Source: an uncultured Chloroflexia bacterium | GTDB lineage: Bacteria; Chloroflexota; Limnocylindria; Limnocylindrales; CSP1-4 | Assembly (NCBI GenBank): GCA_963720755.1 | Contig: CAVRGP010000002.1 | Location: forward strand, 288,001-352,000 | Length of the DNA: 64,000 nt | Direction of reading: 5' to 3' | In this document: in pieces, positions 51,801 to 56,873 of the stretch | Layout of the letters: each line of letters starts with the position of its first letter | Numbering within the stretch: position 1 is the first letter of the stretch | Translations under genes and position numbers: made by a program | The notes under the pieces: model-generated | What the model was told of the DNA's origin: nothing | The model's input: only the letters and a program-made list of their open reading frames with translations | The model's database searches: none

Positions 51801-51905
51801 GCGCCCGATGATGCCGCACCAGCGGGTCAACCCGTGGCCGGAGGCGCTCGCTCCACGACCTGACGCCGACGGTAATCTTGGCCTGCTCGAAAACCTGGAG
51901 GCTTG

Positions 51906-52874
51906 ATGTCTGGACCACTCACCGACGCCGGTGAGACCACTGTTGCCGAGCTCGCTGCTCGCTACCGCGTGAGCAAGGAGGCCGTGCGGGCGCTGCTGGA
52001 TGCGGTGATCCGTGGCCGTGGCTCGATGGCCCAGTTCTCCCATCCTGACCTGGGCGGCAGCGGCCAGTGGATGCGCGGCGGCATGACGATGGTCGGCGAC
52101 ATGTTCAACCCGGGCCTGCAATCGGCCGTCAGCGGCATCTGCTCGGAACTGTCGTCCCAGCTGGCAGAGGGTGCGGTGCTTGTCACCGAGCCCAGCCGGG
52201 GGGCGGTGACCGATTCAGCTGGCGACCAGCGGAGCCGACGTGGCTCGAGCACGGGTGGCAGTGACTGGTGGCCGTCGGAGTTGGGTCGGCCGAGTTCCTC
52301 CGGTGGCCAGAACGACGACGCCTACGCCTATTTCCCGGGCACCCGCCGGTTGGCCGTCCGCCGCGGCGGCGCCATCACGATCTACGACACCGGCGATCAC
52401 CAGATCTCCGGGGTCCAGCAGCAGCAGGGTTCACGGGGGACGCAGGAGTTCACCAGCCAGCGAGGGACCTTCACCGTCGACAGCCTGCCGGTGGTGGAAG
52501 ACGCCGGGCCGGGCAGCGCCGCCGCCGCTCAGCAGCCCCAGTCGTTGGACGTCCGGTCCCCGGACCGGATCGGGTCGCCGTCGACCCCGCGGCATCCGTC
52601 GTCGGAAGCTGCCGCCGAGGACGTCACGACGACTCCGTCCGCCCCGCCGGCCCACCGCCCCTTCACGTCGCCGACCGCAGCCACGTCGCCGCCGGAATCC
52701 GGACCGGTTCCTGCCGCGTCACACCCGGTGCAGTCATCGGGTACCGCCGGCCGGGCGTCGACCCCGGCGGACATCGGCGCGGCCATCGAAACCCTGGCCG
52801 GCCTGCGGGACAAGGGTTTTCTGACCGACGAGGAATTCAGCGCCAAGAAGACCGAGCTGTTGGCCCGGCTCTGA
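51906..52874 (+). CDS. SHOCT domain protein
   Basis: AQFSHPDLGGSGQWM, WWPSELG, C-terminal LRDKGFLTDEEFSAKKTELL. Confidence 0.88.
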   Translation: MSGPLTDAGETTVAELAARYRVSKEAVRALLDAVIRGRGSMAQFSHPDLGGSGQWMRGGMTMVGDMFNPGLQSAVSGICSELSSQLAEGAVLVTEPSRGAVTDSAGDQRSRRGSSTGGSDWWPSELGRPSSSGGQNDDAYAYFPGTRRLAVRRGGAITIYDTGDHQISGVQQQQGSRGTQEFTSQRGTFTVDSLPVVEDAGPGSAAAAQQPQSLDVRSPDRIGSPSTPRHPSSEAAAEDVTTTPSAPPAHRPFTSPTAATSPPESGPVPAASHPVQSSGTAGRASTPADIGAAIETLAGLRDKGFLTDEEFSAKKTELLARL

Positions 52875-52878
52875 CGTC

Positions 52879-53391
52879 ATGATGTCGTCCGGTTCCGTCG
52901 TCCACGCGGTGGTGGATTCCCCGGTCGGTGAGTTGACGCTGGTCGGCCGCGACGGAGCACTGGCGGGCGTCTACTTCCCGGAGCATGTGCGTCGTCCCGA
53001 CGAGGCCTCGTTCGGCGCCCGGGACGACGATGCCTTCGTCATCGCCGTGGAACAACTCACGGCGTATTTCGCCGGCCGCCGCACGGTGTTCGAGTTGCCG
53101 CTGGACCCGGTGGGAAATGCGTTCCAGCGCAAGGTCTGGGCGCAGCTGACGCTGATCCCGTACGGCCAGACCCGCACCTACGGGGAGCTGGCCGTCGCCC
53201 TCGGCGACCCGAGGCTGGCCAGGGCGGTCGGCGCCGCGAACGGGCAGAACCCGCTGTCGATCATCGTGCCGTGCCACCGGGTGGTGGGTTCGGACGGGAA
53301 GCTGACCGGCTACGCCGGCGGGCTGCCACGCAAGCGGTTCCTGCTCGACCTGGAGACACCGGTCGACCAGCGGGCCGACGCACTGTTCTGA
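52879..53391 (+). CDS. ogt: Methylated-DNA--protein-cysteine methyltransferase
   Basis: FQRKVW, IPYG, RAVG, IVPCHRV, GYAGG. Confidence 0.95.
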   Translation: MMSSGSVVHAVVDSPVGELTLVGRDGALAGVYFPEHVRRPDEASFGARDDDAFVIAVEQLTAYFAGRRTVFELPLDPVGNAFQRKVWAQLTLIPYGQTRTYGELAVALGDPRLARAVGAANGQNPLSIIVPCHRVVGSDGKLTGYAGGLPRKRFLLDLETPVDQRADALF

Positions 53392-53555
53392 ACGACCCGG
53401 GCTCCCGCCGGCGGGGCCCGCGACCCGCCACGCGGTCGCACACTCTCCCGCGTCGCGACTGAACCGCCTCAACCGTTCCACGCCCGGTTCTGGTCGAGCG
53501 TGGTTCACCCGGCACGCCTGGGTGGCCAGCTCGCCCGCGATCGCCGGGCGTCAGG

Positions 53556-53584
53556 TTGACAACGGTGCGATCCGCAGCGATTGT
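53556..53584 (+). promoter_or_regulatory. Probable leaderless promoter
   Basis: TTGACA, 17 nt, GATTGT, 6 nt, ATG at 53591. Confidence 0.55.
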
Positions 53585-53590
53585 CGAAGC

Positions 53591-53699
53591 ATGCCCGCAG
53601 CGTGTCCGGTCCCGGTCCGGGCCGAGCTGCATCCTGACCCGTTGTCGCTACGTCGACAACATGCGGAGTTGCTCCGCCATCTGTCCCGTTTGCCGCTGA
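53591..53699 (+). CDS. Cys-rich leader peptide (one apparent extra G at 53619-53621)
   Basis: MPAACPVPVR/PSCILTRCRYVDNMRSCSAICPVCR*; resembles actinobacterial LxRxxHVDxxRxxSAxC leader peptides. Confidence 0.65.
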
Positions 53700-53865
53700 A
53701 ACCCCGCGTCGCGCCATCGCGACGTCGTCGGGATCCCGTGTGTCGCCCCATCGCGGGGGTGACAGCTCACCCCCACGCGACTCGAACGCGGCCGGTCCTG
53801 CCACGCGGCCCGTACCACCGAACCCCAGCACACCTCGCCCATCATGAATGAGAAGGAAACACCCG

Positions 53866-54382
53866 ATGTCCGTCACCGACGAACTCCTGACCAACGCCGA
53901 GCAGTACGCCGCATCCTTCGACAAGGGCGATCTGCCGTTGCCGCCCGCCAAGCACATCGCCGTGGTGGCCTGCATGGATGCCCGGCTCAACGTCTACGGA
54001 CTGCTGGGCCTGAGCGAGGGCGACGCCCATGTGATCCGCAACGCCGGCGGCATCGTCACGCAGGACGAGCTCCGCTCGCTGGCCATCAGCCAGCGGCTGC
54101 TGGGAACCACCGAGATCGTGCTGATCCACCACACCGACTGCGGCATGCTGACCTTCACCGATGACGCCTTCCGGACCTCGATCGAGTCCGAGACCGGAGT
54201 CAAGCCGACCTGGGCCGCAGAGGCGTTCACCGACCTGGATGCCGACGTGCTGCCAGAAATCGGCCGGATCCAGGCGGAGACCGCCATCCCCGTCAAGGAT
54301 TCCATCCGTGGATTCGTCTACGACGTCGCGACCGGCGTCGCTGCGAGAGGTGAAGTGCAAGATGCCCTGTCCAAGGTCCTGA
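53866..54382 (+). CDS. Beta-class carbonic anhydrase, Rv1284/clade D-like (3' end ambiguous)
   Basis: CMDARL, VIRNAGG, RSLAISQRLLGT, HHTDCGM, GFVYDVATG; AAGGA RBS. Confidence 0.9.
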
Positions 54383-54861
54383 CGTTCCCGAACCCGGTCA
54401 ACGAGTACGCGGCGCGTTCGGTGGCTGCGATGGTGGTGGTGTTGTCCGCCGCGACCGTGGTGTTTCAGACGCCCTGGCTGCTCTGGCCGCTGGCTCTCGG
54501 GTTTCTCGCGAGAGTGGCGTCAGGACCACGGTTCTCGCCGTTCGGGCTGCTGGCGACGAAGGTGATCGCCCCTCGCCTGGGGCCGCCGAAGCTGGTCCCG
54601 GGCCCGCCGAAGCGGTTCGCCCAGGCCATCGGGGCAACGTTGTCGGTGGCCGCGCTGGTGGCGTTCTACCTGGGTGCGCCGACGGTGTCCTGGGTGCTGG
54701 TCGCCCTGATCACCGTCGCCGCGCTCGCTGAATCGGCGCTCGGATTCTGCCTGGGCTGCGCCATCTTCGGCCGGCTGCAGGCGATCGGCGTCATCCCGGC
54801 GTCGGTGTGCGAGGCCTGCAACGACATCCGGCTGCGACCCAGGGCCGCCAGTTCCGTGTGA
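54367..54861 (+). CDS. DUF4395 membrane protein (in frame with the CA in this assembly)
   Basis: FPNPVNEYAAR, GPPKRFAQAIG, LESALGFCLGC, C-terminal CEAC. Confidence 0.85.
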   Translation: MSKVLTFPNPVNEYAARSVAAMVVVLSAATVVFQTPWLLWPLALGFLARVASGPRFSPFGLLATKVIAPRLGPPKLVPGPPKRFAQAIGATLSVAALVAFYLGAPTVSWVLVALITVAALAESALGFCLGCAIFGRLQAIGVIPASVCEACNDIRLRPRAASSV

Positions 54862-54944
54862 CCGCGACAGGTGCCGGACGGCGGGCCGGCCCGGCGGACT
54901 GCGCTGCGGGCGAACGCAGTCGGTGGCGGGTGGGGGTGGAACGG

Positions 54945-55631
54945 TCAAAGCCCCCACACCTGCAGAAGCGGCCCGGCGTCCTGCAGGGAGTCAAGGAGCA
55001 CCTCCGCGCCGAGCGGGGCCATCGACTCCACCGAATGCCGACCGGTGCCCACCAGTGCGCAGGGCAGTCCCAACGCGCGGGCGCAGCGAAAGTCCCGCGG
55101 GGTGTCGCCCACGATCCAGCAGTCCCGCAACGCGAACCCGCCGCCTGCCGCGGCCAGCCGATCCAGCGCGAGCTGCGCCACGGCCACCCGATCCCGGCCA
55201 CCGTCACCGAACCCGCCGAGGTCGGGGACGATCGGCGGGGCGAGCCCGGACGCGGCGAGCTTGATCCGTCCCACGACGTCGATGTTGCCGGTGACAACGG
55301 TTTGTCGTACTCCCGCGTCGCCGAGCAGCGCGACCAGCGACCGCACCCCGGGGAGCACCGCCACCTGCTGGTGAAAGTCGTCGACCCGCTCGGCCGCGAT
55401 CTCCCGGAGCCTGGCCAGCACCGGTGACACCAGATCCTTGTCCGCGCCGATGGAGGCCAGCAGCGCGGCTGCGATCTCGGGGTCGATCCGGCCACCCAGG
55501 TCAAGCCCGCGGCCTTCCGGCCGGACTGCCGTGACCTGTTCGACGGCGTCCAGGAACGCCGTGTACGCAACGGTTCCGGACGTCAGCAGGGTGCCGTCGA
55601 TATCCCACAGCACCGCCGCGACCCGGCTCAC
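54945..55631 (-). CDS. HAD-family hydrolase, translationally coupled to larC
   Basis: LWDIDGTLL, VTGN, VGDTPRD; GTGA overlap with the larC stop. Confidence 0.9.
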   Translation of the reverse strand: MSRVAAVLWDIDGTLLTSGTVAYTAFLDAVEQVTAVRPEGRGLDLGGRIDPEIAAALLASIGADKDLVSPVLARLREIAAERVDDFHQQVAVLPGVRSLVALLGDAGVRQTVVTGNIDVVGRIKLAASGLAPPIVPDLGGFGDGGRDRVAVAQLALDRLAAAGGGFALRDCWIVGDTPRDFRCARALGLPCALVGTGRHSVESMAPLGAEVLLDSLQDAGPLLQVWGL

Positions 55632-56873
55632 CGGTCCGCCCGAAGCCCGGACGGCAGCCGAGCGCCCGGTGTCAAACCTGCGGCACCCGCTGCAGCAACC
55701 GCGGCGGTCAGCACTTCCCGCGGCGGGCGGCCACCGGTCAGTGCCAGCGCAGCGATGTCATCGAACTCCGGGGTGGCCTGCACGATGAAGCCGCCCCGGT
55801 GGGCGATCTTGATCGGCACGGAGCCGGCATCGATGGCCACGTCGACCCATCCGCGGGGGAGGGCGTACTTGCTGCACCGGGTGCTCGCGCAGCCCGATGG
55901 TGCTGGTCCAGTCGAAGATCACCGCGCGCAGCGCGGCGGCCGACTCCGGGGCGCAGAGCACGCACACGGTGTGTGCGGGCCGGCCCTTCTTCATCAGGAT
56001 CGGCACCAGCCAGGCGTCGTCGGCTCCCACCCGGAGCAGCCGGTCCAGCACCCCCGGCCAGAGCCGCGGGTCGAGGTCATCGACGTTGGCCTCCAGTACC
56101 ACCGCCGCGGTCCCTGTCGGCGGCGGTGTCCGGTCCGAGTGAGCCGGGGTGGTGGAGCCGAGCACCACCCGGGTGACGTTCGGCCGTCCCGGGACATCCT
56201 TGGAGCCGGCGCCGACCCCGACCGCCCGCACAGTCAGTTCGGGCAGTTCCTCGCAGGCGTCGCACAGGGCCGCGACCATTGCCATCCCGGTAGGAGTGGT
56301 GAGCTCGCCGTCGCCGCCGGCGAACACCGTCCATCCGACCGCGAGCTGCGCGACAGCGGGGACCGGGACGGGGATCTCGCCGTGGTCGGCCCGAACCCGG
56401 CCGGACCCCACTGCCACCGCGCCAGCGGACATCGTGCCGACCCCGAGGTCGGCCAGCGCTGCGCACACCCCGACGATGTCCGCGATCGAGTCCAGTGCGC
56501 CGACCTCGTGGAAGTGCACGTCGGCCGCGGGGATGCCGTGTACGGTGCCCTCTGCTTCGGCCAATCTCGAGAAGACTTGCAGCGCGCGGGATCTGACGGA
56601 GTCCACCAAGTCGGCCTGCGTCAGCAGGTTCGCGATGCTCCGCCAGGTGCGATGTGGGGGATCCGCGGCGATCACGTCGACATCGAGCTTGGTGGCGCGT
56701 AACCCGGCCCTGGTCACGGTCGAGACCCGCAGTGCCACCGCGTCGGAGATCACCGCCCGCACCGCGTTGTCCACCGCATCGAGATCGGCTCCGGCATCCA
56801 GCAGGGCGCCCAGCAGCATGTCGCCGGCAACCCCGGCCGAGGCATCGATCCAGAGGTGGTCGGTCGCCGTCAT
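55628..56873 (-). CDS. larC: Nickel insertase for the nickel-pincer cofactor, frameshifted near 55875
   Basis: GVAGDMLLGAL, VHFHEVGALDSIADI, GELTTPTG, EANVDD, MKKGRP, STIGLR; C-terminal PEFDD in the 55628..55840 frame. Confidence 0.92.

Follow-up and report, generated by a model that had tools for sequence, protein, structure and literature searches.

The window analysed here is a stretch of 64,000 nucleotides (nt) from contig CAVRGP010000002.1 (positions 288,001 to 352,000 of the forward strand; assembly GCA_963720755.1). It holds genes for a beta-carbonic anhydrase (CA) and a DUF4395 membrane protein and, shortly upstream of both, a short cysteine-rich reading frame. The question raised by this locus is whether the short frame is a leader through which the supply of cysteine controls the CA, as had been proposed in an earlier note on this DNA, and what use the cell would then make of the enzyme. 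The explanation which best covers the findings, and which we consider probable, is that the frame is a Cys-attenuator leader switching on CA and DUF4395 for sulfur supply. To our knowledge, the Cys-sensing leader short open reading frames (sORFs) described to date come from mycobacteria, where they stand before cysteine and sulfur genes.

Conservation of the leader sORF

The frame at 53631-53699 (+) reads ILTRCRYVDNMRSCSAICPVCR-stop, as the earlier note had it. Alignments, genome-wide profile scans and a codon table place its conserved core, PSCILTRCRYVDNMRSCSAICPVCR-stop, at 53622..53699 (+), with five Cys codons among the last 24 codons and no two of them adjacent. When a profile was built from 16 relatives with the window excluded, the window frame was the top scorer (E 1.8e-5) among the 67,427 stop-terminated frames of its genome, the runner-up having E 0.16, and no other significant family member was found in the window's genome by the profile scans. 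The motif L-x6-D-x8-C is common to about 40 sORFs across Actinomycetota and fits 37 of the 41 non-redundant loci, while a 17-row alignment gives the consensus LTRRxxVDxxRCxSAxCxx-stop, in which L, D and the last C are invariant. All three invariant residues are present in the window core, the last Cys being encoded by UGU, and the near-invariant Arg four residues before the Asp is replaced by Cys. On this evidence the Cys-rich frame is a genuine, conserved leader sORF and not an accidental frame.

The codons used at the conserved Leu are TTG (7), CTC (17), CTG (12) and CTT (1), and those at the conserved Ser are AGY (17) versus TCN (11). As synonymous codons vary at conserved residues, selection acts on the peptide, and these comparisons show conservation at the protein level. 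The codon for the last conserved Cys (Asp +9; 53679-53681 in the window) is TGT in 36 of 37 loci and that for the Cys two codons before it is TGC in 11 of 11, counts which, like those of the motif, do not represent independent events, the loci being related. Among Cys codons in long ORFs of the window's genome TGT accounts for 22.5%, and the TGT at the last Cys can be noted as a rare codon fixed in position in G+C-rich genomes.

The same motif (LTR.R.VD..R; L-x6-D-x8-C) is carried by two published sORFs of M. tuberculosis. Rv0815A is given as ...MLTKRRAVDLCRL...C-run and also printed as ...MLTKRRAVDLCRLAG followed by a Cys run, and Rv2391A is given as ...LVARRHIDLKRVCSCGC... and also printed as ...LVARRHIDLKRVCSCGCRP (PMC13096801, Supplemental Table 1); both are named there as Cys-response attenuators (PMC13096801). 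Rv0815A is described as the M. tuberculosis counterpart of Ms5788A, the regulation of which was reported, from mutation experiments, to require translation of the sORF and its Cys codons; proteomics in the same work found the proteins of six Ms5788A-like loci to be up in low cysteine (Canestrari et al. 2020, bioRxiv 10.1101/834739). These attenuators are short ORFs, of about 20-50 codons, and the window sORF likewise lies on the same strand directly upstream of a gene, its core ending 166 nt before the CA start. It adds one more member to an established family, the actinobacterial Cys-responsive attenuator sORFs (Ms5788A/Rv0815A, Rv2391A), and the regulatory role given to it in the earlier note is largely right. 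The earlier claim of a hidden sORF of the Cys-attenuator class is thereby upheld, through the motif common to Rv0815A and Rv2391A and the leave-one-out E value.

It could be argued that the Cys-rich frame arose by chance in G+C-rich DNA, since Cys-rich frames are common in the non-coding frames of such genomes and a strict motif search returned a second match in the window's genome, on contig C11, with approximately 0.4 matches expected (a rough estimate, not computed). The leave-one-out result is genome-wide, however, and relatives in about 40 loci occupy the same place ahead of genes of the same kinds, which leaves chance with a negligible probability. The second match itself (C11:589271; locus L131, ~2230-2313), a frame ending ...CIDRLRSCSAHCGP-stop, was rejected as probably fortuitous because it overlaps the start of an opposite-strand gene, has no gene behind it and fits the rough expectation above; it was not recovered by the profile scan.

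As to its distribution, the sORF was found upstream of CA in three metagenome loci (L056, L098 and L058) out of the 75 that had 150 nt or more of upstream sequence, and in L132 and L133, which gave the best two CA matches among 80 genome contigs. These five loci entered the seed alignment, and the resulting profile was then searched in 400 other genomes of the phylum, where it found further copies, whose stop codon stands immediately ahead of a gene. Among closer relatives the picture is different. The same-genus genomes showed no conserved upstream frame and no match to the final profile, the sORF was present in 0 of 29 CA loci of same-genus and same-order relatives (with CA at most 54% identical), and no match to the profile was found in 25 other genomes of the taxonomic family to which the window's genome belongs. 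A search of the 509-nt intergenic DNA against 401 genomes of that taxonomic family gave only short G+C-rich matches (best 62 nt, E 4e-7), and a protein search with the 47-residue ORF as assembled gave no candidate. A conserved Cys sORF upstream of related CAs, for which the earlier note had suggested looking, was found in distant loci and not in the same genus. The window CA is 77-85% identical to CAs of soil metagenome contigs and metagenome-assembled genomes (MAGs) and no more than 54% identical to the CAs from 24 genomes of its genus; it may possibly have been acquired by transfer. Separately, a single-Cys member of the sORF family was seen 3' of CA, before a GNAT acetyltransferase gene, in an Actinocrinis MAG (L205:2159-2230).

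Start of the leader and nearby frame breaks

The upstream geometry described in the earlier note, TTGACA-17-GATTGT-6-ATG, was confirmed on reading the sequence. A -35-like hexamer TTGACA at 53556..53561 (+) is followed after 17 nt by a -10-like hexamer GATTGT at 53579..53584 (+; A at position 2, T at position 6) and, 6 nt further on, by an ATG in the leaderless position at 53591..53593 (+). The block GGTTGACAACGG, which includes the TTGACA, is identical in locus L056, where it lies upstream of the homologous sORF, with GATCGT at the same offset as the window's GATTGT and, 7 nt after it, an in-frame GTG giving 34 codons. A sigma-70 scan did not call the TTGACA/GATTGT site, as GATTGT fits TATAAT at only three of six positions. 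Across the sORF family, NANNNT stands 6-8 nt before an in-frame start in 17 of 28 members, compared with 7.9% of all ATG/GTG codons in the window's genome, although the chance level for the former figure is perhaps a fifth because there are several candidate starts per member.

Two observations weigh against an intact leader at this point. The first is that the ATG at 53591, which the leaderless geometry fits, is offset by one base from the frame of the conserved core; as assembled it opens 86 codons to 53851, part of ORF 53522-53851. The earlier note had removed this difficulty by taking one G of the GGG at 53619-53621 as spurious, and dropping one base between the ATG and ~53630 does join the ATG to the Cys frame, giving 35 codons with six Cys (checked by hand). 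The second observation concerns that G: a public contig near-identical (99%) to 53604-53699, with one mismatch and no gaps, carries the same GGG, and a spurious G there is not confirmed. In this contig the 125 nt further upstream do not match the window; a second contig, covering 53542-53711, has 10 mismatches and one gap, the position of which is not shown. With the ATG out of frame and the near-identical contig gapless, the proposed repair is unproven and the sORF is possibly broken here.

Two further frame breaks lie close by. The ORF downstream of the sORF is 337 residues long as assembled and has both Pro_CA and DUF4395 domains. The CA alignment ends at query residue 153-158 in 79 metagenome loci with CA on the query strand, of 80 (L052, with only a partial, convergent CA copy, was left out), and the one match that extends further (L053, to residue 177) continues past the end of its contig. 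CA homologues end in ...LREV plus 1 to 8 residues before the stop; in the window SLREVK lies in the +1 frame (ORF 54161-54382). The contig of one relative lacks a base at 54336, the loose ends of others read ...LREVK/S, and in L056 the CA and DUF4395 genes are separate, 46 nt apart. Taken together, these ends, the +1-frame SLREVK, the relative's contig and L056 indicate that one extra base near 54334-54337 (+) merges two genes into the 337-residue ORF. We therefore correct the single protein to two genes: the Rv1284-like beta-CA at 53866..54382 (+; Pfam Pro_CA), in frame to ~54336 and then in the +1 frame to the TGA at 54380-54382, and the DUF4395 membrane protein at 54355..54861 (+; Pfam PF14340, 4.3e-39), for which GTG 54355 is the likely start, though not a settled one. 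The DUF4395 homologue of L052 is 85% identical from residue 163 on. Two C-x-x-C motifs are present in the window's DUF4395 protein. The gene for LarC (nickel-pincer cofactor) at 55628-56873 (-) is split as well, with PF01969 1-324 in 55758-56873(-) and 335-374 in 55628-55840(-); one base seems to be extra near the junction at 55868-55872, 1.5 kb from the CA break.

With LarC broken beside the CA frame break, indels appear to be frequent locally. The earlier note had spoken of many indels in the assembly, which holds for these two places; the neighbouring ogt and HAD genes look whole. A CCGG context as common cause of the three frame problems was considered and rejected, there being none at the LarC junction. 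At the leader, a fully intact core together with two nearby one-base errors fits an assembly error, and because those two breaks lie within 2.3 kb such an error is likelier than a mutation. We lean towards one base being spurious somewhere in 53594-53633, see a lesser though appreciable chance that the sORF starts elsewhere than at ATG 53591, and regard a real, recent frameshift in the leader as unlikely.

If the sequence were correct, the leader would be a recently broken copy which has lost its start, with CA and DUF4395 no longer under cysteine control and perhaps coupled to the 86-codon frame, which stops 15 nt before the CA start. The identical GGG in the near-identical contig agrees with this, as does the spacing between TTGACA and the motif's GTCGAC, which is 96 nt (counted by hand) in both the window and L056, so that there is no net length difference between the window and its nearest relative. 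Against it, the core is fully intact, with its invariant residues, the UGU and a stop where the family has it, two other one-base frame breaks are found within the same short distance, and the 86-residue product looks non-coding and is not conserved in L056. A broken copy is, in our judgement, improbable.

It is also conceivable that the sORF is intact and is read from a transcript starting further upstream, in which case TTGACA/GATTGT would not be its promoter. The Cys frame is open from TTG 53556 (47 codons), and its only in-frame starts are TTG 53556, GTG 53565 and ATG 53661; the start candidates in the window are the out-of-frame ATG 53591, with GATTGT 6 nt upstream, and GTG 53565 (53565..53567, +; 44 codons), the nearest in-frame alternative, which CAGGTT precedes by 7 nt. 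In L056 as in the window, the TTG within TTGACA shares the frame of the core. A start at GTG 53565 or TTG 53556 would, however, give 44-47 codons where members with a clear start have 23-34, and the two blocks which are conserved with L056 have the spacing of a promoter, the stretch between them not being conserved, so that a start at either codon is decidedly unlikely.

Around these features, the O6-methylguanine methyltransferase gene (ogt) is the upstream neighbour at 52879-53391, and just 5' of it a gene at 51903-52874 (+) encodes a 323-residue Ser/Pro/Gly-rich protein with a C-terminal SHOCT domain. Downstream of CA and DUF4395 lies a convergent HAD hydrolase gene. A TTGTCG/CGACAA-like word was noticed by eye four times in alternating orientation (53556, 53578, 53640, 53652) and is not kept in L056.

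Downstream genes and the carbonic anhydrase

The genes behind the sORF (its cargo) were surveyed in a sample of 400 genomes of the phylum with at least 90% completeness, 21 of which matched with an E value no higher than 0.001; the matching genomes cluster in two taxonomic families, with 7 of 17 and 8 of 14 genomes. After rescoring, 23 loci were retained (L273 and L275, with no rescored match, and L274, with the motif 31 residues from the stop and no gene behind it, were dropped). An Rv1284-like CA is the cargo in 12 of the 23, a share inflated by the fact that 13 of 17 profile seed rows are CA-linked. The remainder consists of an NIR_SIR sulfite reductase (three loci), TauE/SafE (two), and sulfate adenylyltransferase, OAH/OAS sulfhydrylase, rhodanese, a CysE-like protein, a weak MetH-like fragment (motif 13 residues from the stop) and an unassigned gene (L269) in one locus each. 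Unpublished genomes stand behind three of these cases, namely the sulfate adenylyltransferase (G597) and one CA and one TauE (G687). Beyond the sample, CA is the cargo in L056, L098, L058, L132 and L133, and the sulfite reductases among the cargo overall are of the CysI and NirA/SirA types.

In named genomes, DUF4395 is the gene immediately behind the sORF in Nocardioides, Amycolatopsis and Mycobacterium sp. The cargo of Nocardioides alkalitolerans and of Amycolatopsis iheyensis comprises DUF4395 followed by rhodanese, and a NirA/SirA-type reductase, a type also present among the cargo in Mycobacterium sp. Six copies were found in Krasilnikovia sp., with rhodanese, a NirA/SirA-type reductase, SBP_bac_3 (a cystine-type binding protein), an NMT1/SsuA-like protein, cysteine dioxygenase and a Trans_reg_C regulator as cargo. 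The order in Mycobacterium sp. D16Q14, an sORF MQARLEPMLTKRRAVDLCRVAG with six Cys, a 157-residue DUF4395 protein, rhodanese and a 119-residue protein, matches the gene order Ms5788A-Ms5788-cysA2 (bioRxiv 10.1101/834739), and we infer that Ms5788 is a DUF4395 protein. That DUF4395 genes occur near sulfur-metabolism genes, as the earlier note had stated, is thus borne out by its place as first gene of an Ms5788A-type operon in a Mycobacterium.

The family's sulfur-gene cargo is as well established by these comparisons as the membership of the window sORF in the family; DUF4395 belongs to it through the Ms5788A-type operons, and CA is a new recurrent cargo. On account of the homology of the sORF to Cys attenuators and of this sulfur cargo, the placing of CA and DUF4395 in a cysteine-limitation regulon is well supported. 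Nothing in the literature searched links CA to Cys attenuators, and CA with DUF4395 as cargo is unreported there. Elsewhere DUF4395 stands beside CA in one of 80 CA homologues and in three of 80 metagenome loci (L056, L102 and L052), with a possible fourth (L059), and the longest downstream neighbours of the 80 CA homologues include no consistent sulfur genes. In L052, L102 and L186 the two genes are adjacent in other arrangements (convergent, reversed order and divergent), and such varied neighbourhoods hint at a functional tie beyond the operon of the window.

The CA itself matches Rv1284 (CanA; PDB 1ylk) over its full length (residues 2-157) at E 9e-61, the COS (carbonyl sulfide) hydrolase 3vqj at E 1.4e-33 over residues 4-112 only, and the CS2 hydrolase 3ten at E 1.1e-21. 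The zinc-site motifs C-x-D-x-R (VACMDARL) and H-x-x-C (HHTDCG) are present, giving Cys-His-Cys with an Asp-Arg dyad, and these ligands together with the full-length likeness make it a clade D beta-CA of the Rv1284 type. Several members of clade D are COS hydrolases, as the earlier note had said (PMC12035519, PMC10880591). A COS hydrolase (EC 3.13.1.7) is defined by high activity on COS together with low activity on CO2. Rv1284 has been placed beside these COSases and noted for its high CO2 hydratase activity, in a 2025 study which reports no residues explaining the choice between COS and CO2 (PMC12035519). A fungal COSase (Trichoderma harzianum) supports growth on COS as sulfur source, and what heterotrophic bacteria gain when enzymes of this kind degrade COS has been called unknown (PMC10880591). 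A second Rv1284-like CA, 43% identical to the first, lies in the same genome at C2:440168-440638 (-), locus L028, with no family sORF found upstream.

The sulfur genes of the host have a bearing on this. No NIR_SIR domain was found in the window's genome, nor CysI, SirA or Sat by tblastn, where 'not found' in a MAG that is 93.6% complete does not equal absence. One PAPS_reduct protein, two CysK-like genes below the curated cut-off and a MetY-like gene are present. With no sulfite reductase or Sat found, and with CysK-like and MetY-like genes at hand, a route delivering sulfide would be useful to the organism, which may depend on reduced sulfur.

Proposed coupling to cysteine and comparison with known systems

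The Cys-attenuator explanation would work as follows. From the promoter at 53556-53584 a transcript would begin at or next to the sORF start, and the sORF would be translated by ribosomes. When charged tRNA-Cys is scarce, these would pause at the Cys codons, and most of all at the invariant UGU, which lies three to five codons ahead of the stop; the pause would relieve the repression of the Rv1284-like clade D beta-CA and the DUF4395 membrane protein. The CA/DUF4395 operon would in this way be switched on by cysteine or sulfur shortage, and the role of the CA would then most economically be the release of sulfide from COS (perhaps CS2) for sulfhydrylases. Cysteine sensing by the window leader is inferred by homology. 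Because the peptide is conserved and the UGU fixed, we hypothesise that the nascent chain and the slowly read UGU together set the pause.

In addition to the frame of the ATG and the inflated share of CA, several findings weigh against this explanation. CA is the cargo in none of the 11 members from named genomes (five genomes), though each of these genomes has an Rv1284-like CA, and the sORF stands upstream of CA in only five of the 190 CA loci (some of them DUF4395-only) that a search with the CA-DUF4395 protein returned. In sequence the CA is far nearer to Rv1284, which hydrates CO2 well, than to the COSase. The window sORF has no two consecutive Cys codons, whereas at least two were the search criterion of Canestrari et al.; as Rv2391A as printed also has none adjacent, this criterion seems to be operational and not defining.

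The remaining points of this kind concern the coupling. In Ms5788A the Cys tract is reported to pair with the Shine-Dalgarno (SD) site of Ms5788 (bioRxiv 10.1101/834739). In the window an SD-like GAGAAGGAAA lies at 53850-53859 (+), ahead of CA and within the 166-nt spacer at 53700..53865 (+), which has two hairpins (~53706-53727 and 53752-53780) and an ordinary fold energy (z -0.61). Compared with shuffles, the duplex of sORF tail and SD gave z +0.29 for the window and a mean z of -0.02 for 16 leaders, one of the 16 falling below -1.64. With a ribosome masked at the last Cys, SD accessibility rose by more than 0.15 in three of 21 leaders (counted from individual rows, L270 being left out) and went from 0.70 to 0.64 in the window. 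Occlusion of the SD site as published is not supported in silico as the coupling in the window; tail-to-SD complementarity does appear in a subgroup formed by L215, L216, L225 and relatives. A search of the + strand of 53300-55000 found no T-tailed terminator, and no U-tail terminator with a competing antiterminator, as in a classical transcription attenuator, was seen between leader and gene. A permissive Rfam search of 53000-55200 gave nothing relevant, with two sub-threshold chance matches on the opposite strand.

One might suppose instead that the peptide is made for its own sake, as a small thiol- or metal-binding protein which works with the downstream enzymes and is no sensor of tRNA-Cys. 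Conservation of its non-Cys residues (L, R, D, R, S) equals that of its Cys, candidate metal ligands (His or Asp, Cys) recur, and CA is a zinc enzyme. The homologue Ms5788A, however, is reported to act in cis via ribosome occupancy (bioRxiv 10.1101/834739), the same family precedes unrelated enzymes and transporters with up to six copies per genome, and a rare codon specific to one position fits a pausing device better than a structural Cys. We consider a role of the peptide as product very improbable.

Returning to the Cys-attenuator explanation, a wider proposal can be put forward, tentatively, as one that may well not hold in full. In several soil Actinomycetota the Rv1284-type clade D CA would belong to a cysteine-starvation 'ribulon' and act mainly as a COS/CS2 hydrolase feeding CysK- or MetY-type sulfhydrylases, and the conserved nascent peptide (LTRRxxVDxxR...) with a single rare UGU, instead of a Cys run, would form a sensitive gauge of charged tRNA-Cys. 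If true, heterotrophic bacteria would have a regulated means of obtaining gaseous sulfur, and the uptake of COS by soil would have a physiological reason. The sORF family spans the phylum, and its conserved motif and fixed rare Cys codon point to pausing without a polycysteine run. Clade D beta-CA is the most frequent cargo in the phylum sample, and its membership of the regulon would open the COS question to reporter and growth experiments. With DUF4395 tied firmly to the same regulon, its likely role is narrowed to the handling of sulfur compounds at the membrane.

Among known enzymes, Rv1284 resembles the window CA in the full-length match and the zinc-site motifs and differs from it in that no leader sORF is reported for Rv1284 in the literature searched; in the one Mycobacterium genome searched, the family profile matched only the sirA leader. 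The COSases of Thiobacillus thioparus (3vqj) and Trichoderma harzianum belong to the same beta-CA clade as the window CA, and the fungal enzyme supplies a precedent for COS as sulfur source, whereas the match to 3vqj is weaker and partial.

Among known leaders, Ms5788A/Rv0815A share with the window sORF the N-terminal motif LT[KR]RRAVD..R (judged from Rv0815A and the Mycobacterium sp. copy), a short ORF with a Cys-bearing C-terminus and DUF4395 downstream; leaderless geometry is likewise seen in the window, though for an ATG one base out of frame. The window differs in having five dispersed Cys instead of a run of six to eight, a beta-CA between the sORF and DUF4395 with no rhodanese after them, and a 166-nt spacer with no predicted pairing of the Cys region with the SD site. 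Rv2391A has the same motif, dispersed Cys (..RRHIDLKRVCSCGC..) and TGT for the last Cys, equally far from the Asp. This leaderless sORF leads sirA (sulfite reductase), where the window sORF leads CA and DUF4395. Attenuators of the trpL/hisL type also have a leader peptide rich in codons of the amino acid reported on, and they differ from the window in their terminator/antiterminator pair with a U tail, no such pair having been found here. The peptide of the window's family is conserved outside the sensing codons, and classical leaders need no such conservation.

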